A stretch of 63,603 nt of DNA, counting the filler, from Octopus bimaculoides (taxonomy: Eukaryota): NCBI RefSeq assembly GCF_001194135.2. It is 5 parts of 4 records of this genome, joined end to end, with 100 filler letters (N's around TTAATTAATTAA, not from the genome) between each part and the next. Parts side by side here need not be neighbours in the genome. Positions count along the whole stretch, not along the records: positions 1 to 13,886 come from NC_068998.1; positions 13,987 to 41,927 come from NC_068981.1; positions 42,028 to 56,966 come from NC_068983.1; 2 more parts are not named here. One strand, given 5' to 3'. A program made the translations under genes and the position numbers. Shown in pieces: positions 8,090-54,187 of the stretch. Position 1 is the stretch's first letter. Each line of letters starts with the position of its first letter. The notes under the pieces were generated by a model, which worked only from the letters and a program-made list of their open reading frames with translations, made no database searches and was not told the DNA's origin.

Positions 8090-8348
8090 TTATTTACATT
8101 ATTTACAATTGACGGATATTTGTCCTCATCTTGTTTGTTGCTAACACAACGTTTTGGTTGATATACACTCCAGCCTTCATCAGGTGTCTTGGGGAAATTT
8201 CAAATCTGGGTCCTCATTCCTAAGGTATTTTTCGATGTTATTATTATTATTCAGGTTACTGCCTAGAATCGAACTCGGAATCTTAGGGTTAAGAGCACGG
8301 GCTATTAACCCCAAGATGCCGAGTTTGATTCCAGGCAGTGGCCTTAAA

Positions 8349-8379
<31 letters not shown>

Positions 8380-8561
8380 TCGAAAAATACCTTAGGAATG
8401 AAAACCCAGGTTCAAAATTTCCCCAAGACACCTGATGAAGGCTGGAGGATATATCAGCCGAAACATTGTGTTAACAACAAGATGAGGACAAATATCCGTC
8501 AATTGTAAATAATGTAAATAATGTACATAATTCCTCATCTCTTAAATATAGAATTGTAAGG
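8090..8561. mobile_element. Palindromic dimer of tRNA-headed, hammerhead-bearing element (copy 1), inserted into a SINE
   Basis: Inverted arms meeting at 8287-8310; 9-bp TSD CGAAATACC at 8081-8089 and 8562-8570 splits a family-2 SINE. Confidence 0.85.
8427..8472 (+). ncRNA. Hammerhead motif copy (ACGT mutated to ACAT); further degenerate copies at 8143-8188(-), 12374-12410(+), 14956-15001(+), 53761-53804(-), 54090-54135(+)
   Basis: GACAC-CTGATGA-A-GGCTG-gaggatatat-CAGCC-GAAA-CATT-GTGTT. Confidence 0.55.
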
Positions 8562-8714
8562 CGAAATACCACTAAGCATTTTGCCCGGCATGCTAACAAT
8601 TCTGCCAGTACCCTGCCTTAACAACAACAATAATAATGAAGTAGAATATTACATTAAAAACATATCATTTCAGTTAATTAACACAAAGATTTAATTACAA
8701 AGGAAAATATAAAG

Positions 8715-8720
8715 TTTATT
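8715..8720 (-). promoter_or_regulatory. Candidate polyadenylation signal (AATAAA) of CFAP298
   Basis: TTTATT on + strand about 40 nt downstream of the CFAP298 stop codon. Confidence 0.5.
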
Positions 8721-8760
8721 CAGTGAAATAATTTACATCTTTACAACTTCTTCCCACAGC

Positions 8761-8862
8761 CTAATACTTGATGTTGGTCAGACCCTGAAATTTCTTCTTC
8801 AGCATTTGATTGTCAGCCCATTCAGAATTTAAATAAGAATCTTCATCATCTGTTGCTAATTT
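8761..8862 (-). CDS. CFAP298: CFAP298 terminal coding exon (KLATDDEDSYLNSEWADNQMLKKKFQGLTNIKY*)
   Basis: Acceptor tttctcattcaacag|, 34 codons ending in TAG; matches recalled human DDDAYLNSPWADNTALKRHFHGVKDIKW. Confidence 0.95.
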   Translation of the reverse strand, partial: KLATDDEDSYLNSEWADNQMLKKKFQGLTNIKY

Positions 8863-9657
8863 CTGTTGAATGAGAAACAAAGAATGGTCAGTATTAAAAA
8901 ATAGTTACATCAGAATAGCTTCTTGTACAGACATGACAGTTTCCAAATTTCTGGCAGAGTGAATTGTGTCATGGTGCTGATTTTCTCACAGGCGGTGCCC
9001 AACTGACTCTACTATACTGTGTAGTTGACAAAATCAAAAACAAACAATGCGCATGCGTGAAATAAAAAATATAAAACGGCGACAATTTACCCATCGCACC
9101 CTGTATATGCACATTTACATTTGTGCGTGTGTGTGTGTGCGTGCGTGTGTGTGCGGATAAGTATGCAGTCATGTGTGTGTGTGTGTGTGTGTGTGTGCAT
9201 GTATGTGCACATTTGTTTTTTGTGTGTGCATATATATAAGCGCATTTGTTTGTGCATGTGTGTGTATATATATGTGTGCATTTATATTTGTGTGTGGATA
9301 TATGTGCATATTTAAGTGTGCACGTACGTGTGTGTGTGTGTGTGTGTGTTGTCAAGAGGGAGGTAACTTATAAATTGTTATGTCAAAAAAAGGAACACGA
9401 ATTATGTCCCTTGGTGCTTAAGAGTGTTTCTTTGGTAAAGACTCCTTCATTAATAGAAATATAAGAATATAAAGTTTTACTAGCTCCAGCTAAAGGGCTA
9501 TGGATAGGTTGCTTGTTTGCCAACCATGTGATCTCAGGTTCAATCCCACTGTGTGGCACGTTAAGCAAATATTTTGTACTACAGCACTGAGCTGACCAAA
9601 GCCTTCTAAGAGGATTTGGTAGATAAAACCTAAAAGAAGCCTATTGCGTATACATAC

Positions 9658-9688
<31 letters not shown>

Positions 9689-9933
9689 CATGCCTGTATC
9701 TCTGTGTACTCGTGTCTTAATGCCACATGATGGATGTAAATGAACATCCCTGTCATACGAGCGGTGCTGTTCATTTCCAGTCTTTTGACCATGGGAAATA
9801 TTGTCTTATTTGGAGACTGCTGAGTATGGGCAGCAGGAAGAGTATACAGGCATTGGAAACATTTGTCACACAAATTCTATCTGAGCCATGCAAGCATTGA
9901 AGATTCAATGTTAAACGACAATGACAACATATA

Positions 9934-9976
<43 letters not shown>

Positions 9977-10468
9977 TATTCTTTTATTCGATTGTCATTT
10001 GACTGTGGCCATGATGGAGCACTGCCTTTAGTTGAGCAAATNNNNNNNNNNCTTTTATTCGATTGTCATTTGACTGTGGCCATGATGGAGCACTGCCTTT
10101 AGTTGAGCAAATCGACCCCAGGACTTATTCTTTGTAAGCCTAGTACTTATTCTATCAGTTTCTTTTGCCAAACCACTGTTACGGGGATGTAAACATACCA
10201 GCATCAGTTGTCAAGTGATGTTGGGGGGGACAAACACAGACACACAAACACACACACAAACACACACACACACACACATATATATACGACAGGCTTCATT
10301 CAGTTTCCATCTACCAAATCCACTCACAGGCTGTAGTAGTGGCTGTAGTAGAAGATACTTGTCCAAGGTGCCACACAGTGGAACTGAACCCGGAACCATG
10401 TGGTTGGTAAGTAATACACTTACCACGCAGCCACTCCTGCACCTGTATATATATATATATATATATAT

Positions 10469-10540
10469 ATAAACAATCATAACAGCCCCACAGAGGATGT
10501 CCAGAGCATCTTTCACTGTTTTCTGATCAACATAATGCCC
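10469..10540 (-). pseudogene. CFAP298: Displaced fragment of a CFAP298 exon (GHYVDQKTVKDALDILCGAVMIVY) inside a downstream intron
   Basis: Matches recalled human VTMEMVKDALDQLRGAVMIVY, but lies 3' of exons it should precede; bounded by a maT remnant and (TA)n; no donor site. Confidence 0.8.
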
Positions 10541-10995
10541 TGGAGGAGGTAGTGCTGCTGGAAGACCCTCTGTCTGGCAACTAGACTCTGCACCATGCCA
10601 CACAAGCAGGAGAACCCAATCATGGCTGTCAGACAATTTCTGCAATCACATCATCCCTAACATCTGGCCACCTAACTCCCCAGACTGCGGATCCCTTCAT
10701 TATTATGTGTGGGGCGCAGTTGAGCAAGAAACCAACAAAACTCTTTTTAACACCAAAGATGAACTGAAGGCAAAGATTATGGCAGTATTCACCAACTTAA
10801 ACAAGGAGACTGTCCAGAAGAGTCTGGAGGCCATAGTTGAAGGCAATGGTGATTTAATTGAATAAATTTACTCTTTAGTATTTCAAGGTATTTTAATTTA
10901 ATTTTGGTAAATATATCTGTTAAAATAAGACGCCAGTGTTATTTTCATTTTTGCGAAATTTAGACGACAGTTTGTTCACCACAGCACCCTCTGTC
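10541..10995 (+). mobile_element. maT/DD37D transposon 3' fragment
   Basis: Open frame 10560-10865: GRPSVWQLDSAPCHTSRRTQSWLSDNF...WPPNSPDCGSLHYYVWGAVE, with 37 residues between D and the degenerate last D. Confidence 0.8.
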
Positions 10996-11029
10996 TGCCC
11001 CTCTCTCTCTCTCTCTCTCTGATGTAGTG

Positions 11030-11452
11030 TAAAAGAAAGAAGACTGTGCTGGTTTGGTAATGGGATGTGTATGGATGTAGACAGATGCACACAGAAATGC
11101 TGGTCACTCAAAATGGATGGAACTTGTGGGAGAGGGAGACCCAGCAAGACATGGAATGAAGCATTGAAGGTTGATCTCAAGACACTGAGCCTTATGAAGG
11201 AAATGACTAAAAACTGAGATATTGGTACCTTGCTGAACTCAAGAATCCTGTCTGTTACAGCAGAATTGGTACCAGTGCTGGTGCCACATTAAAAGCACTG
11301 GTTGGCATTACGAAAGGGCATCTAATCATGGAAGCTATGCCAGAACAGACACTGAATGGAACCTGGTACAGCCCCTGGTCTTACCAGCTCTAGTCAAACA
11401 ATCCAATGCCAGCATGGAAAATGGACATATGATGATGATGATGATGATGATA
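11030..11452 (+). mobile_element. RTE-clade LINE 3' end with (GAT)n tail
   Basis: RRLCWFGN...GTCGRGRPSKTWNEALKVDL, then UTR and (GAT)n at 11430-11450. Confidence 0.75.
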
Positions 11453-11540
11453 TATGAAGCTTGTGTGGATGGGTGGGTTGGACACAAAAATGAAAAGAAG
11501 AAATAAAACAATAAAGAAAAGTGTTTCTGGTTTAATTTAC

Positions 11541-11636
11541 CTTTGCGGTTTCTTGCTTTCTGTAATAATAGGCCATCATCTCCTTTTGGTCCTGCTCACT
11601 GATCACAGGTTCACGACCTGGGGCACCTTGTCCAAG
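11541..11636 (-). CDS. CFAP298: CFAP298 coding exon (LGQGAPGREPVISEQDQKEMMAYYYRKQETAK)
   Basis: 96 nt, phase 0-0, acceptor after pyrimidine tract ...ccactag|, donor AAG|gtaaat; matches recalled human RGQGAPAREPIISSEEQKQLMLYYHRRQEELK. Confidence 0.95.
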
Positions 11637-12015
11637 CTAGTGGGTTACAAGATGAAAGAAAGAAACCAACTTACAAATATTTTCAATATGGGACCAGTCG
11701 ATTTCATGGACCCCAATGCTTAACTGATATTTAATTCATCAACTTTCAAAGGATGAAAGGCAAAACAGACCTCAGAAGAATTTGAACTTGGAACATGAAG
11801 ATGAATAAGATGCCATTAAGCACTTTGTCAATGTGCTAAAGATTCTGCCGGCTCACTATAATAATAATAATAATCCTTTCTATAGTACTGGGGAACAAAT
11901 CTCAATATTTTGTCTATTGAATAAGATTTGATAGTTCAAAGAAACATGGGGGTGCTGAGCACAAATCTTTACAGTTTTGCTCTATTAAGTCCTGATTTTG
12001 AAGTTCCAATGGTAA

Positions 12016-12189
12016 TACAGTTCTATATTTAAGAGATGAGGAATTATGTGCATTATTTACATTTGACGGATATTTGTCCTCATCTTGTTTGTTGTTAACA
12101 CAATGTTTCGGCTGATATACCCTCCAGCCTTCTTCAGGTATCTTGGGGAAATTTCGAACCTGGGTTCTCATTCCTAAGGTATTCTTCAA

Positions 12190-12226
<37 letters not shown>

Positions 12227-12447
12227 GTTGTTGTTCAGGTCACTGCTTGGAATCGAACTCGGAATCTTGGGGTTAGTAGCCCACACTCTTAACCACTACG
12301 CCATAACTAACTATTGCAATACCACAACACAATGGCCCCTATCACACTGCAGCAAGTTCGAAATTTCCCCCAAGACACCTGAAGAAGGCTGGAGAGTATA
12401 TCAGCCGAAATGACAAGTATCCATTGAATGTAAATAATGTAAATAAT
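12016..12447. mobile_element. Palindromic dimer (copy 2): full monomer with A/B boxes plus inverted partial arm, in a CFAP298 intron
   Basis: Minus-strand A box TGGCGTAGTGG (12293-12303) and B box GAGTTCGATTCC (12249-12260); TSD GTTCCAATGGT at 12003-12013 and 12448-12458. Confidence 0.85.
12097..12142 (-). ncRNA. Hammerhead motif copy (core CTGAAGA; ACGT mutated to ACAT)
   Basis: GATAC-CTGAAGA-A-GGCTG...CAGCC-GAAA-CATT-GTGTT. Confidence 0.55.
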
Positions 12448-12825
12448 GTTCCAATGGTTTATGATTATAATAAGCAGAAGGCTCGATTTTGTAAGGAAGG
12501 AATAAGTTGATTACATTGACCCCAGTGTACCGCTGGTACTTATTTTATCAACCCCAAAAGGGATGAAAGGCAATGTCGCCCTCAGTAGAATATGAACTCG
12601 GCAACGGACAAAATACAGTCTGAACAGAAATTCCTTTTACATCTGAGTCACACCATTCAACAACCAACAAACTATTGCAAAACCACAATACAATGGGCTC
12701 TATCACACCACAGCAAGTACCAACACACCACCGCAGCAACCATCATCACCACTACAAAACAACAAGTCACCTCATCATTACAACCACCAACAAATTAGCA
12801 AAGTGATGAAAAACAAAACATTTAC

Positions 12826-12957
12826 CTTTTGTAATTTGGCAATAATTTTCGTCTTCTCATTATTGCCGATATAATCCTTCAGCTTTTTACCACGTAGCAA
12901 CTGTTTACCTGCCCACCAGAGGTCAGCATTATCAACTGGTATGACTTCCAGAGAAGC
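12826..12957 (-). CDS. CFAP298: CFAP298 coding exon (ASLEVIPVDNADLWWAGKQLLRGKKLKDYIGNNEKTKIIAKLQK)
   Basis: 132 nt, phase 0-0, acceptor tgtttcag|, donor AAG|gtaaat; matches recalled human AQLWWAAKELRRTKKLSDYVGKNEKTKIIAKIQ. Confidence 0.95.
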
Positions 12958-13059
12958 CTGAAACAGACAGTGGGAATGATACAGTAAACTATAATAAATA
13001 GAAACAAAACATGGAAAAACTTGTGGAAGTCTGTGCCAGCAAAAGTCTTTAGTAATGTT

Positions 13060-13185
13060 CACAATTACACTAGCGAATACTAGGAACCACAATTACACTA
13101 GGGAATACTAGGAACCACAATTACACTAGCGAATACTAGGAACCACAATTACACTAGCGAATACTAGGAACCACAATTACACTAG
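13060..13185. repeat. 28-bp minisatellite x4.5 (CACAATTACACTAGCGAATACTAGGAAC)
   Basis: Near-identical units, one substitution. Confidence 0.9.
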
Positions 13186-13257
13186 ATACCATAATCAGGA
13201 TAATGCCCTGCATTATTAGACACATTAACAAAATTAACTAAATTTAACAGATGGAAG

Positions 13258-13288
<31 letters not shown>

Positions 13289-13680
13289 GTTTAATGTCCA
13301 CTTTCCATGCTAGCATGGGTTGGATGATTTGACTGAGGACTGGCGAACCAGATGGCTGCACCAGGCTCCAATCTGATTTGGCAGAGTTTCTACAGCTGGA
13401 TGCCCTTCCTAACGCCAACCACTCAGAGAGTGTAGTGGGTGCTTTTACGTGTCACCGGCACGAGGGCCAGTCAGGTGGTACTGGCAACGGCCACGCTCAA
13501 AATGGTGCTTTTTACGTGCTGCCTGCACAGGAGGTCAGTCCAGCAGCACTGGCAAATGACCTCGCTCGAATATTTTCTCACGTGCCACCAGCACAAGTGC
13601 CAGTAAGGCAACGCTGGTAACGATCACGCTCAAATGGTGCTATTTACATGCTACCGGCACGGAAACCAGACAGCTGGTCA
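13258..13680 (-). mobile_element. RTE-type 3' UTR with (GAT)n tail and internal ~60-bp duplications; related copy at 6650-6880
   Basis: Same tail as 11030 element in reverse (catcatcat...ctttccatgctagcatgggttgg...gatgcccttcctaacgccaacc). Confidence 0.65.
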
Positions 13681-13822
13681 TGATCAGAAAATCTAACAAA
13701 CAGAACATGCTAGCATAAACAACAAGATGGTGACGTAAGAGGACGACGACGTGACGACAAGGCAGCAAAGTTAACAAATGTATAAATTACACAGAAATAT
13801 TGGTAAACCCATGTGATCCTAC

Positions 13823-13886
13823 CTGGGTGCCTTCAAGTTGTTCTTTATTTTCCAGTTCCATTCTGATAGGGTCATGCGGCGGTAAC
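13823..13886 (-). CDS. CFAP298: CFAP298 internal coding exon, 3' part only (LPPHDPIRMELENKEQLEGTQ); 5' part lost in the assembly gap
   Basis: Translation matches recalled human C21orf59 LPPYDPIRMEFENKEDLSGTQ; ends at phase-0 donor CAG|GTAGGA; runs directly into N-gap at 13887. Confidence 0.9.
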
Positions 13887-13930
13887 NNNNNNNNNNNNNN
13901 NNNNNNNNNNNNNNNNNNNNNNNNNNNNNN

Positions 13931-13942
13931 TTAATTAATTAA
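13931..13942. other. Assembly gap spacer TTAATTAATTAA (also 41972-41983, 57011-57022, 61721-61732)
   Basis: Identical 12-mer centred in 100-nt N blocks four times. Confidence 0.95.
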
Positions 13943-14531
13943 NNNNNNNNNNNNNNNNNNNNNNNNNNNNNNNNNNNNNNNNNNNNCAGACACGTGTACC
14001 CTTAACGTAGTTCTCGGGGATATTCAGCGTGACACAGTGTGACAAGGCTGACCCTTTGAATTACAGGCACAACAGAAACAGGAAGTAAGAATGAGAGAAA
14101 GTTGTGGTGAAAGAGTACAGCAGGGTTCGCCAACATCCCCTGCCGGAGCCTCGTGGAGCTTTTAGGTGTTTTCGCTCAATAAACACTCACAACGTCCGGT
14201 CTGGGAATCGATCCTATGACCGCGAGTCCGCTGCCCTAACCACTGGGCCATTGCGCCTCCACCCACTCGTATATACGTATATGATAATGAGCTAAGAGAA
14301 ATTATTAAGAACGAAATGGTATTTGAGAACAACTCCATTTAATAGGAGGATATTATCTCAAGAATCAAGCAAATCTCTATAGATGACATGCAATTAAGGA
14401 CGTAAAAGGCTTATTGTTTGGGGATAAGAGGTCAGCCGTGGATACGTGTTTCTGCCTCAGTAGGCATCTTCAGTGCGATAATTGTCCTACTCTGTCTCGA
14501 GCAGTCAAGTAATTTAAACATATTCATAAGT

Positions 14532-14712
14532 ACAGTTCTATATTTAAGAGATGAAGAATTATGTACATTAGTTACATTAGACGGATATTTGTCCTTATCT
14601 TGTTTGTTGTTAACACAACGTTTCGACTGATATACCCTCCAGCCTTCATCAGGTGTCTTGCGGAAATTTCGAACCTGGGTTCTCATTCCTAAGGTATTTT
14701 TCGATGTTGTTG

Positions 14713-14760
<48 letters not shown>

Positions 14761-14857
14761 CCTGGAATCGAACTCGGAATCTTGGGGTTAGTAACCCGCG
14801 CTCTTAACCAAAAGATTCCGAGTTCGATTCCAGGCAGTGACCTGAATAATAATAATG

Positions 14858-14888
<31 letters not shown>

Positions 14889-15057
14889 TAATAACAACAA
14901 CAACAACATCGAAAAATACCTTAAGAATGAGAACCCAGGTTTGGAATTTCCCCAAGACACCCAATGAAGGCTAGAGGGTATATCAGCCGAAACGTTGTGT
15001 TAACAACAAACAAGATAAGGACAAATATCCGTGAAATGTAAATAATGTAAATAATGT
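14532..15057. mobile_element. Palindromic dimer (copy 3)
   Basis: Inverted arms meeting at 14786-14809; TSD ATATTCA(T/A)AAGT at 14520-14531 and 15058-15069. Confidence 0.85.
14612..14657 (-). ncRNA. Minimal type I hammerhead ribozyme motif (Penelope-type), best-preserved copy
   Basis: GACAC-CTGATGA-A-GGCTG-loop-CAGTC-GAAA-CG-TT-GTGTT: stem I, core, stem II, palindromic ACGT stem III, GUU site. One extra A after the core; activity untested. Confidence 0.7.
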
Positions 15058-16764
15058 ATATTCAAAAGTGATTAAAAATAAGCAAAGAACATGTAGAACA
15101 CATCTATGTCCAAGGTCATTTGCTTAAATTAAATAAAAATGAACTAAGTGAAATAACTCAGAGTGGCCAATAAGAACAAAATAGAGAAATATAAATATAT
15201 CAAACATATTAAATTCTTGATTTATTAAAACTATTTCTGTCTCTAGCTGATTTGTCACCATTACCAAATAACAACTGAAAACATCTCCGTAAGAGAAAAA
15301 ATACAGTTGTTTATTCTCTTTAATCTTTTACCTTTTATTTGTTTGAGTCATTGGACTGCGGCCGCGCTAGGGTAACTTTTTGAAGGGTTTTGCCAAGCAA
15401 TTTAATCCCTAGGCTTAATTTAAAGTTTGGTACCTATTCTATCAGACTCTTTTGTCAAATTCACTTACAAGGCTTTTGTTATTTCGTAGCTATAGTTGAA
15501 GACACTTGCCCAAAGTGCCGCTTTGTGGGAGTGAACCCCAAACCACGATGTTCAAAAACAAAAATCTTCTTCGTCTCGAATTTCCTAATAACTTATTAAA
15601 ACCAATTCATTGAAAATATCCCAATGGCTTTTAAATGAAAAGTAATAAAATGTGTTTTGTTATTCCTTCTGGCTCTCTACTTTGAATTGAAATCACGTTG
15701 AGATCAATTTTGCCTTTTATTCTTTCAGGTCGATAAATAAAGTTCTAGTTAAGCATTAGGATCGATTCAAACGTCCACCCTTGTCACAAAGTGTCAAGCA
15801 GACTCGAACTGATAGTTACGTTAAAATGTTCACATGTCTGTGGGAACACTCACTCATTTACATATAAATTTTACGAACAGGAACTCGTTGGATCGAACAA
15901 CTCAATGTTCATCATGACAACTGACTGAGAATCCACCCACCATACGAAAATATAAGGATAATTACATTTTTAAAAATCGATTTTAATTTGAAAGTATTTG
16001 AAACAAAAAATCAGTTCGTAGAGGTTAGGTCTGTTATAGTCATAATTAGGTGCCATGGAACTGTACCTACATCTGAATCTGAGCAATAATTTACAGATTT
16101 TAACTTAATGTAATTCTAAATTACCGTTAATTATTGAACTAACTTTTTATTTCGAAATATCTAAAATGTATTTTATACATAATTAATTTCATATATCATT
16201 TATATGTTCAACTGTTAATTTGTATAAGAAATAGATCTTCACCTTAAATAATTGTTTGCATTATGGTTGTCAAAGCATGTATGAGTTACTTCCCTTGCAA
16301 GAAATATCTCATAGAAGTAATGTCCCTTGAAATTCAAAACTCGCTGATTCTTTTTAATTTAAAATTTTTATTAAAAACATGTTTACATGACAAAATGTTC
16401 ATCCGCTGATCAGTAAATAGGAACATTTCTAGAATCACAGATGAAATAACTCCGAAATGGAATGTGCTATCATTGTTTTCATTATGTTTAAGAGCTTAAC
16501 TTCTGCTCCATCTGACTTTAAAATAATAGTTTAAAATTTTGGCAGAATGCCAGAAATCTTGCGGGAGAGATATAAGTCGATTATATCGACTCCAGTACTA
16601 AACTGGTACTTATTTCATCGACCCCAGAAGGATAAAAGCCAAAGTTAACTTAGGTGGAATTTGAACTCAGAACATGAAGACGAGCAAAATACTACTAGGC
16701 CACTTAATCCGGCGTACTAAGGACTCTGCCAGCCCGTTGCTTTACTATTACTACTACCACCACC

Positions 16765-16831
<67 letters not shown>

Positions 16832-29470: not shown

Positions 29471-30729
29471 ATTTCTGGTAGTGCATCATAGAACCAGTAT
29501 TAAAATCTTCAGAACGATGTAAGATTTCGAAACAGCTCTTTTCTGGCTTTCAATTGCACTTTTGATTTTTAAGGCAATCATATCAGCTAATAATGTTAAG
29601 AGTACACGTCTGTATAGAGTGCTCAGCCATTTGCACACGTTAATTTCACAAGGAAGCTGTTCCGTTGATTGGATCAACTGGAACCCTCGTCGTCGTAACC
29701 GACGGAGTTAATTTGCTTGGATAAATGTTTCTTAAGTTTAATTTTGGTAGGAGTGATCAAGGAATACCTATTGAAAGTGTGATAACTCCCTTAAATGGAA
29801 GAATTTTGTGTTTGGACTCACTAGAATATCTTAATGGATTACTGTTATTGTGAGAATTACCGTTCTACTAATTTTGTTGACCACCCTTACTTATAATGTC
29901 AAAATGCGTTTGATAAATAAACTTTATTCACAGATTGATACTACCATGGTGGATCTCCGTCATTTGGCGCCGGGAATCCAGTTGCTCTATAGACACGTGC
30001 ACCCGTAACATAATTTTCAGACAGAGTCAAGTTCACGCAGTGTGTGACAAGGCGGTGCTTTTTTAATTATCGGTACAATTAACCTGACAGGCTTCTATAC
30101 CGTTTCCGTCCACTCTGTTTGATTCACAAGGTATGAATCGTCACGGAGCTATAGAAAATAGTAATGGGATTAAACTCGGAACCTTGTGGTTGCGAACCGA
30201 ACTTCTTAACCGTTCGGTCACACTATTATAAAGTAATACTGAAGGGATATTGGTTCGATTGCAATCCCAAAATCACGACCTACAGATTTCATCCCGTCAT
30301 CTATGTATTTAAACTTGTTCCCACATTTTCTGAAAATATAAAGCTTATTAATAAATTGATGGCTATTAAAATAATAGTTTCAAGTATAGACAGAGGGCCA
30401 CGCATTTTCATGGCAAGAGTATATATCATTGTGATCAATTCCGGGATTTCAGTGATTTAAAAAAACAAATATCGAACGTGGAAGAGAAAGGTGGAAGACA
30501 AAGCCGTTTTTGGTAGGATTTGAATTTAGTAGTTAAAAAAGGCGTAGCAATAATGCATATCATTTTGTATGACACTCTGCTACTTCTACTATCAACCAGA
30601 CTTTGGAGTAATGATATGATAAAAACAATACATTTCATATTTTATCTTTCTGCTCAGAGGAAGAATGTTTTCACTCTGAAGTTGAAAAACTTAGCGAACG
30701 CATGACTCAGCTGAAACACTGTTTTCAAA

Positions 30730-33061: not shown

Positions 33062-33415
33062 ATGCCACACACAAAAGAAGCCTTAGAACTGTTCGAATTT
33101 CAAAGAAACCGTTTTGTGGGTCAATCTGAAGGTGAACTTAGCATAAAATCGCAGAAAACCTTGGGATATCGCTTTCTACAGTTAATTAAGCGATTTGCAC
33201 AATTAACCAGAGAGGAGTAGTCAACATCACTTCGCCCAGGTCGACTAGGACCTTCTGATAGGTTTCTTCGCTTTGTTAAGAGAAGTGTGGAGGATAATCC
33301 TCGTTGCATGGTCTCTGTCATAGCAGAACGAATTGTCAGGTATCTCCACAAACTTGGCTACTATGGCAGAGCAGCAAGAAGGAAGCCATTTTTCTGCAGT
33401 CCTAACATGCATAAG
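33062..33415 (+). mobile_element. Tc1 transposase N-terminal remnant
   Basis: MPHTKEAL.FEFQR...GQ...RPGR...YLHKLGYYGRAARRKP. Confidence 0.7.
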
Positions 33416-37670: not shown

Positions 37671-38833
37671 TATTAGTGTTGCTTAATACGTTTTGCTAAA
37701 ATTGCTGTTTCTTTCCAGATATCATCAGGAAAGGTAATTAAAATGCATTAAAGTGATAGATCTATTGGAATTTCAAAAAGGTCAAATTGTCGGTGCTCGT
37801 TTGGCTTGCGCTAGTGTAACGAAAACAACCGAAGTGTTTGGTGGATCAAGAAGTACCGTCTCGAAAGTAATGACAGCTTTTGAGAAAGAGGGAAAAACCT
37901 CCTCGTCGAAACAAAACACCGGAACAAAACCAAAACTTTCAGATAGGGACCGTCGGACTCTAATGCGAATTGTTAGAAAGGATCACAAAAGTTCAACTCA
38001 CAAAATTACTGCAGAGCTTAACGACCACCTCGAGAACCTAGTTTCCACAAAAACTGTTCGCTGTGAGCTGCACAAAGTCGAATTTTACGGGAGGGCTGCA
38101 ATGAGAAAACCACTACTTTCAAGAACAAACGTTGCAAAGTGTTTAGAATGGAGTAAACACCTACAGAATTGATCCCTAGAGCAGTGGAAGAATGTTATTT
38201 TCTCGGACGAGTCATCCTTTACCTTATTTCCGACTACAGGCTGAGTATACATGTGAAGACAGCCAAAAGCAGCATTTGACCCAGACTACTTTCTTCCAAC
38301 TGTTAAACATGGAGGAGGATCTGTGATGATCTGGAGGGCTATATCTTGGAAATCCGCCGGCCCAATGATTTCTCTTCATGGCGGAATTAATAGTCAAGAC
38401 TATTTAAGTATTTTATCTGATCAAATTCATCCTATGGTTGCGGAACTGTTTCCGGAGAGAAACGCAATCTTTCAGGATGATAATGCACAAATTCCCACAG
38501 CTAAAGTTGTTACTGAATGGCACAAGGAACATTCTAGTGAAGTTGAACATCTTATCTGGCCACCAGTCTTCAGATCTCAATATTATCGAAAATTTATGGT
38601 GCATTTTAGAAAAACAAGTAAGGAGTCGATATCCTCCACCATCATCATTACAAGAACTGGAGACTGTTTTAGCTGAAGAATGGACAAAAATTCCTTTGGA
38701 AACAATTCAAACTTTGTACGAGTTCATTCTCGTAGAATTCAACCTGTAATTACTGCCAAAAGTAGTCTTATCCCATATTAAAATAAATTTGTTTGAAATT
38801 TTAAGGTGTTTCCATTATTTTGTCCAACCCCTG
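37671..38833 (+). mobile_element. Tc1 transposon with near-complete pseudogenised transposase (37753-38780), DD36E-like; left TIR lost in gap
   Basis: HTH, GxKPKL, FSDES, VKHGGGSVMIW, FQDDNA, WP-QSSDLNIIENLW; right TIR (rc CAGGGGTTGGACAAAATAATGGAAACAC) followed by TA. Confidence 0.92.
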
Positions 38834-42686: not shown

Positions 42687-42723
<37 letters not shown>

Positions 42724-42959: not shown

Positions 42960-42996
<37 letters not shown>

Positions 42997-44259: not shown

Positions 44260-44290
<31 letters not shown>

Positions 44291-44643
44291 NNNNNNNNNN
44301 NNNNNNNNNNNNNNNNNNNNNNNNNNNNNNNNNNNNNNNNNNNNNNNNNNNNNNNNNNNNNNNNNNNNNNNNNNNNNNNNNNNNNNNNNNNNNNNNNNNN
44401 NNNNNNNNNNNNNNNNNNNNNNNNNNNNNNNNNNNNNNNNNNNNNNNNNNNNNNNNNNNNNNNNNNNNNNNNNNNNNNNNNNNNNNNNNNNNNNNNNNNN
44501 NNNNNNNNNNNNNNNNNNNNNNNNNNNNNNNNNNNNNNNNNNNNNNNNNNNNNNNNNNNNNNNNNNNNNNNNNNNNNNNNNNNNNNNNNNNNNNNNNTAT
44601 ATATACATATATTTATATATATATATATATATTATATATATAC

Positions 44644-44674
<31 letters not shown>

Positions 44675-44899
44675 CATATATATATATGTGTGAATATATA
44701 TATACATACACGTATATTTGTATATGTATGTACGGTGATGAATGTGAAATAATTTCGTATATTATGAGTGAATGCCAGAAGCGTATAGAGAATAAAGACG
44801 AAAATAAAATAAAATGAAATAAACTAAAATAAAATGAAAAGCGGAATAGTATTATTGGTCGAGTCGTTCATTTAAAGATGAATAGACTCCACCAATTGG

Positions 44900-45370
44900 A
44901 TGAAAGAACAAAACCCAGAAATGATATTGGGAATAAGAACGTAAATCTCGCGGGATTTGAACATCCAAAGCGATTATGTAGCGGAACACAAATATACTGA
45001 CATTATAGGGATAAATAAAGAAGAGAGAGAGAGAAAGAAATACTTGGCTATAGACATAGCTATCCCAGAAGACAACAGAGTGGAACAGAAAGAAGGCGAA
45101 AAATTGCGAAACAGAAAATAACAAAGAAAAACAAACAAAGATAAAATAAGATATATTGAATTGAAAAAAGAGAAAAGGACAGGGAAAGAAACGTATCTGG
45201 TCATTGAAAAAAAAGGGGATGAAAAAATTGCGAAATCGTTCCAGCGATAATTGGTGCAGTATGAGTGCTTAGCAAACATTTGAAAGTATTTAGAAAACGT
45301 CTATAAGTCGAAATGTATTTGGAACACGTCCAAAATAAGGTTTTGCTTGGAATGGCTTGAATATTGGAGG
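44900..45370 (+). mobile_element. Degenerate R4/Dong-like REL domain
   Basis: DLNIQSDYVAEHKYTDII...LAIDIAIPEDNRVEQKEGEK...IVPAIIGAV...NKVLLGMA with frameshifts. Confidence 0.75.
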
Positions 45371-45844
45371 GGGAAAAAAATGAAAAATACAGGAAACAAC
45401 AATATATATATATATATGTATAAAAAAATGAAGTATTAGCCAATGACATTTTAGGTCAGTGGTTGTGATCAGTTTTAAAGCAAAACTAACCAATGAAATT
45501 ATTTGATTCGTGAGTAAAATAATATATTCCTCTTTTGGCACGTGTTTACGAACTCTGATTAATGGATTAGTGGATTATATTGATCTCAGTAGATTAATGG
45601 TACTGCTGTCTTATTGACCCCCACCGAAATGAAAAAAAAACAAAAAAAACAAGAACGGAAGGAAAAGATAACTTCGCTGGGACTTGAACTCCGAATGGCG
45701 TGATTTAATACTGCCAATCATTTTGTCTGTCACGCTAACTTCTAAAATTGTTTTGCTAGAAATGGCAGCACAATTGCCTTCAAACCTAACCCTGGTATCT
45801 TTAAAATAGCTGAATTAACCCCAGGTTAATCTTGTTTAACCCGA

Positions 45845-46110
45845 TCTATGACAACAGATGTTCCAACTGAGCCCATCGCAAATCTATACAGGTATGTAAC
45901 CACTAGAGATCGCTGATCATAGCGTTCCAAATACGACCATCCTGTATTTCGACGGTTGTACAAGCTACAGAACTATGGTCACAGGTATTCCAACTGTGAC
46001 CATCCTGTAGTTTTACAGATCTATGATCGTAAGCTTTCCAAATGTGACCATCCAGTATTTTTGCAGCTATGTATGACAACTGCAACACCTGTGGTCATAG
46101 ATCTGTAGTT
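45845..46110 (+). repeat. Degenerate array of ~40-bp hairpin units (...TTCCAA-TGTGACCATCC...)
   Basis: 4-5 related units; best unit forms ATGGTCACAG/CTGTGACCAT stem. Confidence 0.55.
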
Positions 46111-46161
46111 TTACAAGCACCACAAATCTAAAGTTATATGTGTTCTATCTGGGTCATCAGC

Positions 46162-46502
46162 AGAGGCGCAATGGCTCAGTGGTTAGGGCAGCGGACTCGC
46201 GGTCATAAGATCGCGGCTTCGATTCTCAGACCGGGCGTTGTGAGCGTTTATTGAGCGAAAACACCTAAAGCTCCACGAGGCTCCGACAGGGGATGGTGGC
46301 GAGCCCTGCTGTACTCTTTCACCACAACTTTCTCTCACCCTTACTTCCTGTTTCTGTTGTGCCTGTAATTCAAAGGGTCAGCCTTGTCACACTGTGTCAC
46401 GCTGAATATCCCCGAGAACTACGTTAAGGGTACATGTGTCTGTGGAGTGCTCAGCCACTTGCACGTTAATTTCACAAGCAGGCTATTCCGTTGATCGGAT
46501 CA
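46162..46502 (+). mobile_element. tRNA-derived SINE family 3; reverse copy at 13987-14260, variant at 38845-39135
   Basis: TGGCTCAGTGG A box, TTCGATTC B box, shared body GAGCGAAAACACCTAAAGCTCCACGAGG. Confidence 0.85.
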
Positions 46503-47269
46503 NNNNNNNNNNNNNNNNNNNNNNNNNNNNNNNNNNNNNNNNNNNNNNNNNNNNNNNNNNNNNNNNNNNNNNNNNNNNNNNNNNNNNNNNNNNNNNNNNN
46601 NNNNNNNNNNNNNNNNNNNNNNNNNNNNNNNNNNNNNNNNNNNNNNNNNNNNNNNNNNNNNNNNNNNNNNNNNNNNNNNNNNNNNNNNNNNNNNNNNNNN
46701 NNNNNNNNNNNNNNNNNNNNNNNNNNNNNNNNNNNNNNNNNNNNNNNNNNNNNNNNNNNNNNNNNNNNNNNNNNNNNNNNNNNNNNNNNNNNNNNNNNNN
46801 NNNNNNNNNNNNNNNNNNNNNNNNNNNNNNNNNNNNNNNNNNNNNNNNNNNNNNNNNNNNNNNNNNNNNNNNNNNNNNNNNNNNNNNNNNNNNNNNNNNN
46901 NNNNNNNNNNNNNNNNNNNNNNNNNNNNNNNNNNNNNNNNNNNNNNNNNNNNNNNNNNNNNNNNNNNNNNNNNNNNNNNNNNNNNNNNNNNNNNNNNNNN
47001 NNNNNNNNNNNNNNNNNNNNNNNNNNNNNNNNNNNNNNNNNNNNNNNNNNNNNNNNNNNNNNNNNNNNNNNNNNNNNNNNNNNNNNNNNNNNNNNNNNNN
47101 NNNNNATACCAAAAAGATTTTCTAACATTTTTCTAACATTTTTCTTACATTTTTCTGACATAATTTAAATATATACTTTAACCATGTAACACAAGCCTTC
47201 TGTAGTTTTTTCACTCTTATTATCTTTTATATATCCAACCACGTGCTTTCACATACCAACTTTCTCAAC

Positions 47270-47301
<32 letters not shown>

Positions 47302-47344
47302 TACAAACGTTTTTATATGACTATATGAATATATATACATATGT

Positions 47345-47652
47345 CTGAAAGCGCGTGGTTTAGTGGTTAGGGCATTCGGCTCACGATCGTAAGATCGTGA
47401 GTTCAATTTCCAGCAATGCGTTGTTTCCTTGAGCAAGACACTTTTCTTCACGTTGCTCCAGTCCACTCAGCTGGCAAAAATGAGTAGTACCTGTATTTCA
47501 AAGGGCCAGCCTTATCACACACAATGTCACGCTGAGTCTCCCCGAAATACACGTGTCTGTGGAGTGCTCACCCACTTGCACCTTAATTTCACGAGCAAGC
47601 TGTTCCGTTGATCGTATCAGCTGGGACCCTCGTCATCGTAACCGACGGAGTA
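47345..47652 (+). mobile_element. tRNA-derived SINE family 4; relatives at 25500-25800(+), 35775-36105(-), 41740-41870(-), 47920-48120(+)
   Basis: TGGTTTAGTGG A box, GAGTTCAATTT B box, core TTGAGCAAGACACT...CACGTTGCTCCAGTCCACTCAGCTG. Confidence 0.8.
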
Positions 47653-47710
47653 CTCTTTGTACATATGTACATCTATATTTGTGTGCGTACACACACAAGC
47701 GCGCATACAC

Positions 47711-47749
<39 letters not shown>

Positions 47750-49905
47750 TACACACACACACACAGAAATATAACATCAAATTCAGATTAGCTGCTTCTT
47801 TTGGTATCCATAGTCCGATGTAGTTTACACGTAATCTAGAATTTACAACTTCTCTGTAAATATAATGCATGAAGCCTCCCTCTTACTGTTATTTTAAAAC
47901 TGCATCTACGCAACACAAAGGCGCTTGGCCTATTGGTTATGGTGCTACACTCAGGATTGTATGATAGTAGTTTCGATTCCCGATTGGGACGGTGCGTTCT
48001 GTTCTTGAAAATACTGCATTTCACGTTGCTCCGGTCGATTCGACTTAAAATGAAGTTACCCTGTGACGGACTGGTGTATCATTTTCGGAGTTCTATCATT
48101 ATCTCGGCCATGTATATGCTATGGCCTTGTCTGACTGACTAGTGGTTTATCATCATTTAAAAGATACAGCAATGCGAAGAAGTGCATTGTAACCTGTGGT
48201 GTATAACAACATTCGAGAACTTTGTCGTGGCTGTAATCTTCATTGCAAATAAAAAGCTTAGAGATTCATAAACAATTGATGCTATGGTAAAAAAATTCCG
48301 GGTCTATAGGTTGTGGGTCTGGTTTGTGGTGGTGACTGGTTGTGATGATAAATGAAAATATTTTTCTTGGGCTGCGTGAACATTTAACAGAAGATCTTAT
48401 TACTGCACATAAAGACAAACTGCGTTAGCCTTTTACAGACTGCAGCAGCAATAATTATATACCGGGAGAGAGATTCTGCTTGGAGTTATGGCAAGCTATT
48501 GATGCAGCATCGTGCAGCTTGCCCAGCATAACTGGAAACAACTGTGCAGTATTCGTGTCGACGGAGGATCCTGTCATCTGTCTGTGTCATCTGTCTGTGT
48601 CATCTGTCTTAGCCGCCTTCTTGTGTCACCTGGCAGGTAAAAATGCGCACTGAACAGGTTTTATAAGGGGACAGGAAATCAGATTCTAGAATATTCGAGA
48701 AAACCTGTCCATACCATCTCTTCATGCTGATTCTTCATTAAAAGACCGATTACGTGAAACTCTGGTGGTTTGCCTGTGATGTATGACCTCGTATCCATGG
48801 ATTTGGTTTCGAATCATCACTACACTATAATGGTCCTGATACAACTGTACAACTTCCCCAAACTTATATAAGCAACCTACAAACCTGGTTTCAAAACGAC
48901 ATACTTGCAATCGCACCTGTTTGAATTCCACCATTTCTCTCTCCTTCCCTCCCTCTCTCTTTCTTCCCCTCACTCCCACTCTCCCTCTCTTTCTTCCCTC
49001 CATCTTTCTATTTCTCTCTCCCTCTTTCTTATCACCTCTTGCCTCTTTCCTTGGCAATAAGATCAGAGAGAATTAATTACAACCAAACAGAGAACTCAAC
49101 AACATAAACACACTACACCACTCGTAGATCCAGACAACATTTACAGATGACGAAAAATAACAAGACATACATAGCACACAACATCAACAGCATTCACAGC
49201 ACATGTGGAAGACATAGAAAACAAAAACAAACAACATGAAAGACTATCTTACATGTAGGATATACTGTTGGTTATTGCTCTCTCTCTCTCTCTTCCCCTC
49301 CCTCCCTCTCCCTCTCTCTCCCTCTCACTCCCTCTACCTTCTCTCTCTCTCTCTCTCTCTCTCTGCACACTGAATCTAAAACAAACAGGTCCGCCTATTT
49401 ACAATCTTAACGCTTCATAATATTAACGTCACCGCTACTACTACGACTACGACTACTACTACTACTACTACTACTACTATTGCTACTGCTACTACCACCA
49501 CCACNNNNNNNNNNNNNNNNNNNNNNNNNNNNNNNNNNNNNNNNNNNNNNNNNNNNNNNNNNNNNNNNNNNNNNNNNNNNNNNNNNNNNNNNNNNNNNNN
49601 NNNNNNNNNNNNNNNNNNNNNNNNNNNNNNNNNNNNNNNNNNNNNNNNNNNNNNNNNNNNNNNNNNNNNNNNNNNNNNNNNNNNNNNNNNNNNNNNNNNN
49701 NNNNNNNNNNNNNNNNNNNNNNNNNNNNNNNNNNNNNNNNNNNNNNNNNNNNNNNNNNNNNNNNNNNNNNNNNNNNNNNNNNNNNNNNNNNNNNNNNNNN
49801 NNNNNNNNNNNNNNNNNNNNNNNNNNNNNNNNNNNNNNNNNNNNNNNNNNNNNNNNNNNNNNNNNNNNNNNNNNNNNNNNNNNNNNNNNNNACCACCACC
49901 ACAAT

Positions 49906-49956
<51 letters not shown>

Positions 49957-50802
49957 CATCACCAATACTATCACCACCAACAACGATACTACTTCTACTA
50001 CCACCGCCACCACCACCATCAATCGGGGGAAATGAGCAGAAATTCTAAGCCCCGTACCAAAAACGAAAAGAATCGTAAATTGAAAAGCCAGACATAATCG
50101 TATCGTCACGATTTCAAACTTTGTGAAAATGTCACTTAGTTATCCTCAGCGAGTCTTACTGACCCAAGGGTCATAGAATATATCCATCTCAAGAACGTGT
50201 GCAATGAATGCGTATCAGTGGAAATTCCTGGTTGTAGTCGTCTTCTGACTGACTATTTTTAGCGTGTTGGTGCTACTTGCAGCATCCTTAATTATTAATT
50301 AATAATTTTTTTTTACCTTTATAGTATTACTTTTATGTTTTTTTTCATGCATGCTATGCCAATGGATATTATTGCAAACCATAATATTCCTTTCTTTTAG
50401 TTGTTTCAGTCATTTGACTGCGGCCATGCTGGAACACAGCCTTTAGTCGAACAAATCGACACCCAGACTTATTCTTTGTAAGTCTAGTACTTATTCTATC
50501 ATTGGTTTCTTTTGCTGAACCTCTAAGTTACGGGAACGTAAACACACCAACATCTGTTGTCAAGCGATGGTGCGGGGGACGAAAACAGATACACACACAC
50601 ATACATACGACGGGCCCCTTTCAGTTCCCGTCTACTAAATCCACTCACAAGGCTTTGGTCAGCCCGAGGCTATAGTGGAAGACACTTGCTCAAGGTGCCA
50701 GGCAGTGGGACTGAACCCGGAAACATGTGATTAGTAAGCAAGCTACTTATAACACAGCTACTCCTATGAAGAGATAGATGTTGATAGGGAGATGGATTGA
50801 TG

Positions 50803-50846
<44 letters not shown>

Positions 50847-51859
50847 CATAGATAGAGAGATAGATAGATAAATAGATAGATAAATAGATAGATAGACTAG
50901 ATAGATAGATAGATATAAGAGAGGAAGGGAAAGAGAGAAAGAGATATCTGTAACAGAATGCAATGTGGTGTTCTGATGGTCTACTCAATGCAAGTCCACT
51001 TGGAACATTCGATGCTGAGTTCCAAATAGCTGCTATGGCGAAACGTATGTAAGAATTTATCTTTATTTTCCCTTAAATACATACTTACATGTACATGTAT
51101 ATGTGTTTGTGTACATGTGCGTTTATGAATGTATGAAAAGGTATAAATATATATATATATGCGTGTGTGTTTGTCCGTATACGCGTAGCATTGTTCGAGC
51201 GAATGTATGAAAAGGTATATATGTATATATATCTATATGGGTGTGTGTTTGTGTGTATACGCGTAGCATTGCTCGAGCGAAAATGATGAATGCTTACCCA
51301 GCAGAGTAGATAATATTCACATCAAGGAACTAAAGACAGCAAAATCTAAGCTCGACAAATGATAAAACATTTCTCTATTCTTCACCCACCTCTCAAAAGG
51401 AAAGACCTGGCTGCTGTAAACTAGACACGCAAGACTGCTTTTGATCCTTCCATGTATTTCTTAATGGAAACACGACAGTCATCAATCTGTGATGCCTCAT
51501 TTAGACTCTAACACCTGTGCAGGCTTTTAGGCAGCAGCACAGAAGCACCGGATGTCGAACTTACATATATCTCAAAGATGGCGTTTGCAATTTAGACGTT
51601 TTATTTTCTCTTAACAGTTATCATCTATCATATGACGTGCTCACAAGCAAATATCTGATGTATTTATCTATGTTTGGTTTTGTATTCTTGTTTAATTGTA
51701 TTGTTTCTAGAAACACTCAAGAAACGTGAGCTGATAGATTAAAACACATTTATCGAAACATACAGGTATGTATCGTATGGATGCAGATATATATATTTAT
51801 ATATGTCATACTGGGTTCAGCCAGAGGGTGAGACCATGCTGGCGCAACGCCTTTCACTC

Positions 51860-52025
51860 TGTTTTGGTTTCTTTTCTGCATTGTTTCTGGTGAGATTGTG
51901 AGTTGGATGGAGCTATTCTTTATGCCTTCTGCCTCGATGTGAGTTCATCTGGTATCTCAGATGAAAATTTGTCCCCGACGCTTTTTGAAAATCTCCACAT
52001 TGACTCTCGCAAATTCTGGCGCGAT
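51860..52025 (-). mobile_element. CR1-like LINE 3' fragment
   Basis: QLFSIAP...VEIFKK...SEIPDELTSRQKA...APSNS, across frameshifts. Confidence 0.55.
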
Positions 52026-52060
52026 GCTGAATAGTTGAATATATATATATATATAAGTGT

Positions 52061-52111
<51 letters not shown>

Positions 52112-52114
<3 letters not shown>

Positions 52115-53273
52115 ATATAATATATTATTTACATCAAGAAATCAATATTAGAAAATTCTTCAGAAACATATATACGTGTGTAAAATAATAGTTGTATTAA
52201 AAATATAGATATATATAAATATATGTAAATATGTATAATTATAAATATATAATAATAAATATGATAGTTTAAAAGTTTCGAATTAAGTTTTTAAAGCATG
52301 TTAAGATCATTTCGCGAAGGGTTGTCCCTATAATGGAGTCCTATATTGATAAGCATTTATAGACAACACTTCTGCTCTTCTGAAATATAAAATATAAATT
52401 TTTTATAATTTATAGAATGGTAGTTTTTTAAAAATATGAAGTAATATGGGAAAATGGTGTTTGTTTGAAATACAAATTAAAAATTAAAAATTAAAAAATT
52501 ACTGCTTTTGATTTTGGTAAGTACACTTTTGGTATTTCTGAGGAGCAGAAGAGTTATCTATAAATACTTATCAATATAGGATACCATTATTCTATATTAT
52601 CTAAGTCTATGAACTATATTTGGAATACAGGACAATATAATGGATTTTACACATAACTATTATGGATTATTACAGAAGACTTACCAAGGAAGCATATATG
52701 GATTTAAAGACTCTCATACTAAAGTGTACTTACCAAAATCAAAAGCAGTAATTTTTAAATTTTTAATTTTTAATTTCAAGCAAACACAATTTTCCCATAT
52801 TACTTCATATTGTAAAAAAACTACCATTCGATACATTATACAAATTTCATATTTTATATCTATATAAAATATGAAATTTGTATAATTTATCGAATGGTAG
52901 TTTATATCTATAAGTGTTGTCTATAAATGTTTATCAATATAGGATTCCATTATAGGGATAGCACTTCTGCGAAACGATCGTAAGATGCTTTAAAAACTTA
53001 ATTCGAAATTTTTAAACTATTACATTTATTATTATATATTTATACTTATACATATTTACATATATATTTATACTTATACATATTTACATATATATTTATA
53101 CATATTTATATTTTTGATACAACTATTATTTTACACACGTATATATCTTTCTGAAGAATTTTCTAATATTGGTTTCCTGATNNNNNNNNNNCTATTATTT
53201 TACACACGTATATATCTTTCTGAAGAATTTTCTAATATTGGTTTCCTGATGTTAATAATAATATATTATATAA
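52112..53273. mobile_element. AT-rich foldback-type element with ~420-bp inverted arms and nested palindromes
   Basis: 52112-52530 is the reverse complement of about 52720-53273; extra inverted copies at 52540-52590 and a hairpin at 52820-52900. Confidence 0.7.
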
Positions 53274-53434
53274 AATATATATAATCGCTCGTATTAAATG
53301 TATAAATACTTTAATAGTATTAATATTTTGATACAATAGAGCACTCAATATAAATTCAGTATATAACATTCTCATTGAATATATTTAACTAAAGATTTAT
53401 ATATATATATTTATACATACACACACACATATAT

Positions 53435-53508
<74 letters not shown>

Positions 53509-53668
53509 GCACACACACATAACACATATTTATATATCCTTTAATGTACACAGTATAAGATATGAGTCACTAATAGTTTCTTGCTTTGGAGGCACGGGTT
53601 CAGGTAAGTTTTTATAACAGGCCTTGTTCCTCTAAGCTATCTTCAAGTTCCGATGACATGGTCTATTT

Positions 53669-53995
53669 TACTGTTCTATAATTTAGAGATGAGGAATTCT
53701 GTATATTATTTGCATTATTTACATTGGAAAGATATGTCTCCTCATCTTGTTTGTTGTTACTACAACGTTTCGGTTGATTTACTCTCCAGCCTTCATCAGG
53801 TGTTCTGGTAGGATTTTGAACTCGACCCTGGGTTCTCATTCCTAAGGTATTTTTTGCTGATGCTATTATTATTGTTTATTCAAGGCACTGGTTAAGTGCG
53901 CCGGCTACTAACCTCAAGACTGCGAGTTCAATTTCCAGGCAGTGCCTTGAATAAACAACAACAACAATAACAACAGCAACAACAACAACAACAGC

Positions 53996-54028
<33 letters not shown>

Positions 54029-54187
54029 AATAATAATAATAATAACATCAGCAAAAAATACCTTAGGGTTGGGTTCAAAATTCCACCAGGACACCTGATA
54101 AAGGCTGGAGAGTAAATCAGCCGAAACGTTGTGGTAACAACAAACAAGATGAGGACGGATATCTGTCCCAATGTAAATGATGTAAAC
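53669..54187. mobile_element. Palindromic dimer (copy 4, more diverged)
   Basis: Inverted arms meeting near 53890; TSD GGTCTATTT at 53660-53668 and 54188-54196. Confidence 0.8.

Follow-up and report, generated by a model that had tools for sequence, protein, structure and literature searches.

An octopus tRNA-headed repeat found as lopsided head-to-head dimers and likely mobilised by Penelope-like machinery

Introduction

The closest described counterparts of the repeat family reported here, which has four insertions (copies 1 to 4) in a 63,603-nt window of Octopus bimaculoides DNA joined from five parts, are the Penelope-like elements (PLEs). PLE insertions can carry an inverted, 5'-truncated copy beside the 5' end and a tail of 30-40 bp that is often present at one end only, and their mechanism has been called undefined (PMC8557442). 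Inverted pseudo-long terminal repeats (pLTRs) have been reported together with target-site duplications (TSDs) of 8-10 bp, a 31-bp tail and an 18-bp 5' palindrome, and self-priming was proposed (PMC3846280). The inverted repeats of PLEs also vary in size by copy (PMC2377424). The initial annotation of this DNA had noted that Penelope insertions often carry inverted terminal copies, and that geometry is indeed described (PMC8557442, PMC3846280). A purified PLE protein, predicted to be a dimer, cuts and extends both strands from two reverse transcription start sites that bound the tail, and these sites lie 111-118 nt into an open reading frame (ORF) that begins in the hammerhead (PMC11167929).

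The octopus repeat shares much with the Penelope/Poseidon group, as represented by Penelope of D. virilis, Pen2 and Pen3 of Adineta, and Poseidon PAc of Anolis. Shared traits include a head-to-head inverted, 5'-truncated copy of variable length, a tail of 30-40 bp at one end, a TSD of about 9-10 bp, a palindrome at the 5' end or junction, and a hammerhead with an internal ATG from which the tail end lies about 110-120 nt downstream. On the features by which PLE insertions are recognised, the repeat has the inverted 5'-truncated copy, the one-end tail and a short TSD of variable length, and on that by which a PLE pLTR is recognised it has a putative minimal type I hammerhead. Unlike the Penelope/Poseidon elements, the four copies hold neither an ORF for reverse transcriptase (RT) and GIY-YIG nuclease nor a direct tandem pLTR, and their 5' part is a tRNA-type RNA polymerase III (Pol III) head followed by an (AAY)n tract.

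Several short systems are comparable in other respects. MRC1 and other non-autonomous Chlamys elements (PMC8557442), like the short Penelope elements of heliconiines (10.1101/596502), are non-coding and depend on PLE enzymes. Head-to-tail insertions are described for Chlamys, whereas the available portions of these sources mention no tRNA promoter or inverted dimers for either group. The Schistosoma elements Sm-alpha and Sj-alpha are short, non-autonomous, and place a hammerhead after a Pol III promoter, but they form ribozyme-processed tandem repeats, and the portions consulted describe no PLE tail or inverted dimers (PMC6765202). Metazoan non-LTR (long terminal repeat) retrozymes are likewise short non-autonomous hammerhead elements for which PLE enzymes have been proposed; they have canonical hammerheads, head-to-tail arrays and circular RNAs, in contrast to the octopus repeat, whose hammerhead is minimal, whose head is of Pol III type and whose dimers are head-to-head (PMC7229834). 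An account of O. vulgaris repeats lists 893 recently active unclassified short interspersed element (SINE) families and 6.8% Penelope-like DNA, and describes no such element in the portions available (PMC13282606).

Taken together, our literature search, which did not extend to Repbase or Dfam, found no description of an element that combines a tRNA head with a PLE tail and inverted dimers. The octopus genome paper, its supplements or existing repeat libraries may already name the family.

Results

Every insertion of the family in the window (4/4) is a head-to-head inverted dimer, and a sensitive search of the whole window found no monomer of the dimer family. As the initial annotation proposed, each dimer has its own TSD of 9-12 bp. 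The left and right duplications, on the plus strand, lie at 8078-8089 and 8559-8570 for copy 1 (12 bp, one mismatch), 12003-12013 and 12448-12458 for copy 2 (11 bp, exact), 14520-14531 and 15058-15069 for copy 3 (12 bp, one mismatch), and 53660-53668 and 54188-54196 for copy 4 (9 bp, exact). When pairs of random flanks were compared, requiring an exact match of at least 9 bp or at least 12 bp with one mismatch, 5 of 5000 were as good. Extra 3' sequence is present on one arm only and measures 37, 29, 26 and 40 nt in copies 1 to 4, a spread that comes from a 9-bp unit present two to three times. The arms within each copy differ by 8-17% and are therefore not mirror images made in assembly; with the TSDs also present, an assembly artefact was rejected as the source of the dimers. 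Copy 1 is predicted to fold, over its length, into a single extended hairpin (-301 kcal/mol, z -34).

Copies 1 and 3 are joined in the same way. Copy 1 comprises a short untailed arm at 8090-8310 (minus strand), 5'-truncated at TAACC in the head, and a tailed arm at 8287-8558 (plus strand), which starts at GGTTAAG in the head and has its tail at 8522-8558. In copy 3, GGTTAAG begins the tailed arm, at 14532-14809 (minus strand), and TAACC the short arm, at 14805-15057 (plus strand). Joining at the GGTTA/TAACC microhomology had been noticed at the outset, together with loops in opposite orientations. The joining stands, but the opposite loops do not: the two copies were inserted in opposite directions, hence the appearance, and read in the sense of the tailed arm they have an identical junction with the loop on that arm.

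Copy 2 has a different centre. Its tailed arm, at 12014-12305 (minus strand), is the most complete monomer in the window, and its short arm, at 12357-12447 (plus strand), is truncated just upstream of the hammerhead and has an internal deletion of about 29 bp. The insert between them (12305-12357, plus strand), previously taken to be foreign, is instead a same-orientation copy of host DNA at 12666-12718 (plus strand), about 210 bp beyond the right TSD, with 46/53 identical positions (87%, E 1e-13) and short microhomologies at both ends. Positions 12321-12339 have zero depth from elsewhere in the genome in 4/4 of the sequencing runs described below, so the insert is not a high-copy repeat. Because it copies nearby host DNA, the junction of copy 2 formed at its own locus. 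The divergence between insert and donor, 13%, is similar to that between arms, and the insert may date from integration or from later repair. Its form resembles a polymerase-theta templated insertion.

Copy 4 differs again and belongs to a divergent subfamily. Its tailed arm (53669-53890, minus strand) lacks almost the whole head and starts at CAGTG, and its untailed arm (53889-54187, plus strand) carries the head from TGGTTAAG. Each arm thus holds sequence absent from the other, with the head on the untailed arm, and 9 private variants are common to both. Among copies 1-3, private variants common to both arms occur in 3/3 within-copy pairs versus 3/12 cross pairs (p 0.044), which weakly suggests one RNA or one source per insertion. 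The four copies hold three junction types, and further types occur in the reads; the early claim that junctions differ is upheld to that extent, with copies 1 and 3 alike rather than all four distinct.

To view the family beyond the window, two DNA and two RNA runs were aligned to copy 2 at 80% likeness. The matches amounted to 22,043 and 33,980 DNA contigs and 9,665 and 7,904 RNA reads; the family is abundant, and these totals are not copy numbers. Figures for loose ends refer to the 24 rows listed of 1230, and those for joints to the 15 listed of 177 plus the rows with inserted letters. In 4/4 runs the loose ends peak at 12013-16 and at 12051, 35 nt apart, which agrees with the 26-40 nt seen in the window and bears out the initial observation that one arm has the full tail and the other stops about 35 bp short. 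Short and long 3' ends stand at about 1:1 in the listed rows (1592/1400 in run X21, 1027/1197 in X22, 285/369 in X5 and 300/362 in X9). The ratio of core to tail read depth, uncorrected for edge effects, is 1.98 and 1.75, which fits expectation because each dimer has one tailed and one untailed arm.

The centres are varied. Among the listed joints, head ends at 12300-12305 are joined to inverted arms that start at 12132, 12356, 12368/9 and 12427, and an additional joint links 12140 with 12286; head breaks were seen at 12293 and 12303 as well. In most cases the head finishes with a palindromic cap, TGCCC(A/G)TGGGCA, beyond which the sequence is heterogeneous. As contigs break at repeats, the DNA counts are biased towards monomers, and the RNA signal may be dominated by a few loci. 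Exact-pattern scans of viral, metagenome and GTDB collections found no copies of the repeat.

The monomer is about 280 nt long and non-coding. It opens with a tRNA-type Pol III promoter, followed by the (AAY)n tract and a minimal hammerhead motif, and closes with a tail of 35 nt. In the tRNA-like head of copy 2, a type-2 promoter pattern (A box, 33-nt spacer, B box) lies at 12249-12303 on the minus strand. This is the one match to the SINE Pol III consensus given in PMC8969392, against 0 in 100 shuffles. Reads place the family 5' end about 14 nt upstream of the pattern, and both this position and the 33-nt spacer agree with tRNA-derived SINEs, whose boxes lie 30-35 nt apart near the 5' end. 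The 3' end, in contrast, has a two-site tail of PLE type, with the microsatellite lying internally, rather than the simple-repeat or LINE-like (long interspersed element-like) 3' end of a SINE. Weak matches (65-72%) to the tRNA-like head only, at 30165-30211 and 47356-47418, are probably other tRNA-derived SINEs.

An intact putative minimal type I hammerhead motif lies in copy 3 at 14611-14658 (minus strand), and is the sole full-descriptor match in the window (0 in 60 shuffles). It has a helix I of 5 bp, CUGAUGA, a bulged A, a helix II of 6 bp that opens with G-C, GAAA, a palindromic CG, and UU, which are traits given for PLE hammerheads (PMC4209133). A relaxed test of the core is passed by 3/8 arms. 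Across the family, GAAACG is intact in 79-87% of DNA depth, and position 12133, the free seventh position of the core, is variable (T in 69% and 74% of DNA depth and in 86% and 87% of RNA reads). The ATG within the hammerhead core opens an ORF of 25 codons in copy 3, where the tail ends 118 nt after that ATG. Monomer pieces fold no better than shuffles.

An autonomous PLE would have an ORF for a telomerase-like RT and a GIY-YIG endonuclease, but in copy 3 the frame opened by the hammerhead ATG stops after 25 codons. In 130 ORF translations, a selection drawn partly from 439 stop-free frames of at least 48 aa, Pfam matched neither RT nor GIY-YIG. In the search for a partner, a 40-codon query from the hammerhead ATG had 0 matches in one protein search and 3 in another. 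One of these gene models, LOC128249831 X2 of O. bimaculoides (P0011), takes its first 24 residues from the element's hammerhead ATG, which suggests an element-derived first exon or a spurious model. Two ENA gene models (P0012 and P0013) hold a tandem sister repeat whose translation across the hammerhead region is similar; this may represent a related family of pLTRs arranged head-to-tail. As a query, P0012 led to 5 further ENA models with the sister repeat (P0012-P0018 in all). No genomic loci were found for P0012 or P0013. The one model among them with an RT domain, P0014, includes a short RVT_1 stretch that looks LINE-type by its motif and is apparently chimeric, so P0014 was not counted as a partner. 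The searches gave only gene models with the repeat or the sister repeat, and a PLE is the presumed partner.

Transcripts of the family may be edited. In pileups over 12016-12447, which pool many loci and different animals, compare reads with contigs, and on the RNA side mix Pol III transcripts with read-through, A>G places number 21-24 in RNA runs versus 6 in DNA contigs, and T>C places 30-32 versus 7-8, while places with C>T or G>A rise only from 20 to 33 between DNA and RNA (Fisher p 0.04). At 12151, A>G is present in about 25% of RNA reads versus less than 0.2% of DNA depth. The excess of A>G and T>C hints at adenosine-to-inosine editing. Octopus is exceptional in hyper-editing and in its potential for double-stranded RNA (dsRNA) (PMC5625713). 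If a dimer were transcribed from end to end, its RNA would form a hairpin of about 200 bp open to editing by ADAR, and the family hairpins are possibly RNA-editing substrates.

Two of the copies lie in or near a host gene. The 3' exons of CFAP298, assigned by a Pfam match and protein searches, span 8764-13885 on the minus strand (13820-13885, 12823-12960, 11541-11636 and 8764-8961), and the exon at 12826-12957 has 100% identity to an Octopus bimaculoides record. The protein searches also found the CFAP298 proteins of O. vulgaris, O. sinensis and Argonauta. Copy 2 is intronic, and copy 1 begins some 200 bp beyond the stop. None of the listed records containing the unique intron stretch was registered as RNA, which carries no weight in either direction. 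Since two poly(A)-like hexamers (8720 and 8695) stand between the CFAP298 stop and copy 1, copy 1 may be either in the 3' untranslated region of CFAP298 or outside it. A match to CFAP298 residues 134-151 at 10478-10531 (minus strand), out of exon order in the last intron, is an exon duplicate or a misassembly.

Other mobile DNA is present in the window. An AT-rich element of about 1.05 kb at 52133-53181, with arms of 400-470 bp that are 77% complementary, is unrelated to the dimer family and resembles a miniature inverted-repeat transposable element (MITE) or a foldback element. Stretches at 33221-33415, 37738-38746, 3734-5337 and 63062-63601 include Tc1-type transposase remnants, with Pfam matches at 33221-33415 and 37738-38169, and frames that look by eye like LINE RT remnants but lack Pfam matches.

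Discussion

The repeat is likely a SINE that owes its mobility to a Penelope-like RT and GIY-YIG nuclease, with lopsided head-to-head dimers that are probably put together afresh at each insertion. On the account that we think probable, Pol III would make the monomer RNA, whose 3' part would mimic a PLE pLTR, and a PLE protein, predicted to be a dimer, would nick the two target strands 9-12 nt apart. Each target 3'-OH would then prime a cDNA, one starting at the outer site and taking in the tail, the other at the inner site, which lies 35 nt upstream. These cDNAs would stop at variable points, the furthest at the palindromic 5' cap, and would be joined through microhomologies of 2-5 nt, sometimes with a templated patch of flanking DNA, before gap filling generated the TSD. 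A second cDNA that was very short or absent would leave a monomer-like product.

Priming by both ends of the target break, as the initial annotation had proposed, is retained as the best model, for reasons that differ in part from those first offered. The argument from copies 1 and 3 was wrong, and these copies fit a fold-back equally well. The case is now carried by copy 4 and by the purified PLE enzyme (PMC11167929). Two syntheses are needed for copy 4 because a fold-back copy cannot hold sequence that is missing from its template; copy 4 therefore favours priming from both target ends, unless recombination between its arms flipped the spacer at a later time.

A related process is known from L1, in which both target ends prime cDNA and microhomology joining yields an inversion (twin priming). 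The L1 inversion is a non-overlapping upstream segment, whereas in the octopus repeat one and the same 3' region is copied into both arms, starting from two fixed sites.

A number of observations weigh against this account. Many heads run into heterogeneous sequence rather than into a mirror arm (719/1386 reads and 342 contigs), and 862 X21 reads leave the head into other sequence even when the whole element is the reference. In X9, 318 loose contigs end at 12305 versus about 20 in listed joints. Dimers may therefore be a genome-wide minority, and because so many heads continue into heterogeneous sequence, insertions that are monomers, or that have a very short second arm or a long spacer, are common; the proposal that the element inserts as palindromes describes all four copies in the window but not the many heads elsewhere that run into unrelated DNA. 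Distances between arms within a copy (8-17%) are not below those between copies 1-3 (6-10%, or 18-22% for pairs with the degraded short arm of copy 2). Copies 1 and 3 share one junction, which a fold-back or a dimeric source explains equally well. The anatomical evidence has its own gaps: ARAGORN reported 0 tRNAs, Rfam gave neither a hammerhead nor a tRNA match but only microsatellite and hairpin noise, only 1/8 arms passes the full hammerhead descriptor, and a stable fold of the tail was not supported (0 to -1.9 kcal/mol). Protein searches and a Pfam scan of 130 ORF translations found no autonomous PLE with the same pLTR.

The dimers could also arise by fold-back, which we regard as the less likely course yet one to be taken seriously. 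The same PLE-mobilised SINE would be involved, but a single cDNA would be primed at the target, its 3' end snapping back at the 5' cap or at GGTTA/TAACC and copying itself, and the nuclease would resolve the hairpin at a point 35 nt before the tail is complete. Exactly this geometry is seen in copies 1 and 3, where a loop of about 14 nt separates GGTTA from TAACC on the tailed arm, and the palindromic cap at most heads and the private variants shared by arms fit it as well. Self-priming and endonuclease-mediated resolution have both been proposed for PLEs (PMC3846280, PMC8557442). Barring later inversion of the spacer, however, fold-back cannot put the head of copy 4 on the untailed arm, and the bridging of the copy 2 arms by flank DNA runs contrary to it, as does the ability of the purified PLE to start at both sites and extend both strands (PMC11167929).

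It is improbable that a few dimeric source copies were transcribed whole and retrotransposed ready-made, the variety of junctions being due to several sources and to later repair of breaks at hairpin centres. The junction common to copies 1 and 3 and the 9 private variants common to the arms of copy 4 would suit such sources, and a second deletion in the short arm of copy 2 marks later damage there. Set against this are the many junction types in the reads and the heads that often end without a mirror arm; moreover, a Pol III promoter lying at a dimer's centre would drive transcription of one arm only.

A MITE or foldback DNA transposon of Mutator-like type, whose long terminal inverted repeats had captured a SINE, is largely refuted and very improbable. 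Mutator-like transposons make TSDs of 9-11 bp; the observed TSDs, at about 9-12 bp, would suit them, as would the long inverted arms. Symmetric termini, a fixed TSD length and a fixed internal sequence are what a MITE should have, whereas the ends here are asymmetric by a fixed 35 nt, TSD lengths and centres vary, and Pol III and hammerhead motifs and monomer-like copies are present. A single fixed MITE junction is excluded because the reads hold many junction types. The initial annotation had named one fixed junction with identical termini as the pattern that would tell against it; the reads instead have two 3' ends and many junctions, and its view of a Penelope-type retro-insertion with no MITE master holds.

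Assembly of each dimer by priming from both target ends accordingly remains our preferred reading. The insertions are real, and because their lopsided palindrome geometry is already known for PLEs, this part of the work is mostly rediscovery. The new variant is likely a tRNA-headed SINE that rides on Penelope-like machinery. SINEs are defined as parasites of LINEs (PMC8969392), and an element that joins a tRNA head to the hammerhead and tail of a PLE, if true, would amount to a partnership between SINEs and PLEs.

The family is also short and abundant, and its insertions can be read whole, so that priming from both ends and fold-back could be counted one against the other; copies 2 and 4 are already informative. 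An element able to insert as a perfect hairpin would be a concrete candidate source of octopus dsRNA. More tentatively, and with rather less confidence than we place in the mechanism, a very abundant octopus tRNA-derived Pol III SINE may parasitise PLE enzymes in place of a LINE, and priming from both ends of a staggered break, at the two PLE start sites, would let each event write a complete hairpin of about 200 bp; such hairpins could supply a major share of the dsRNA for hyper-editing, while its copies would offer a natural set of many independent PLE integrations.

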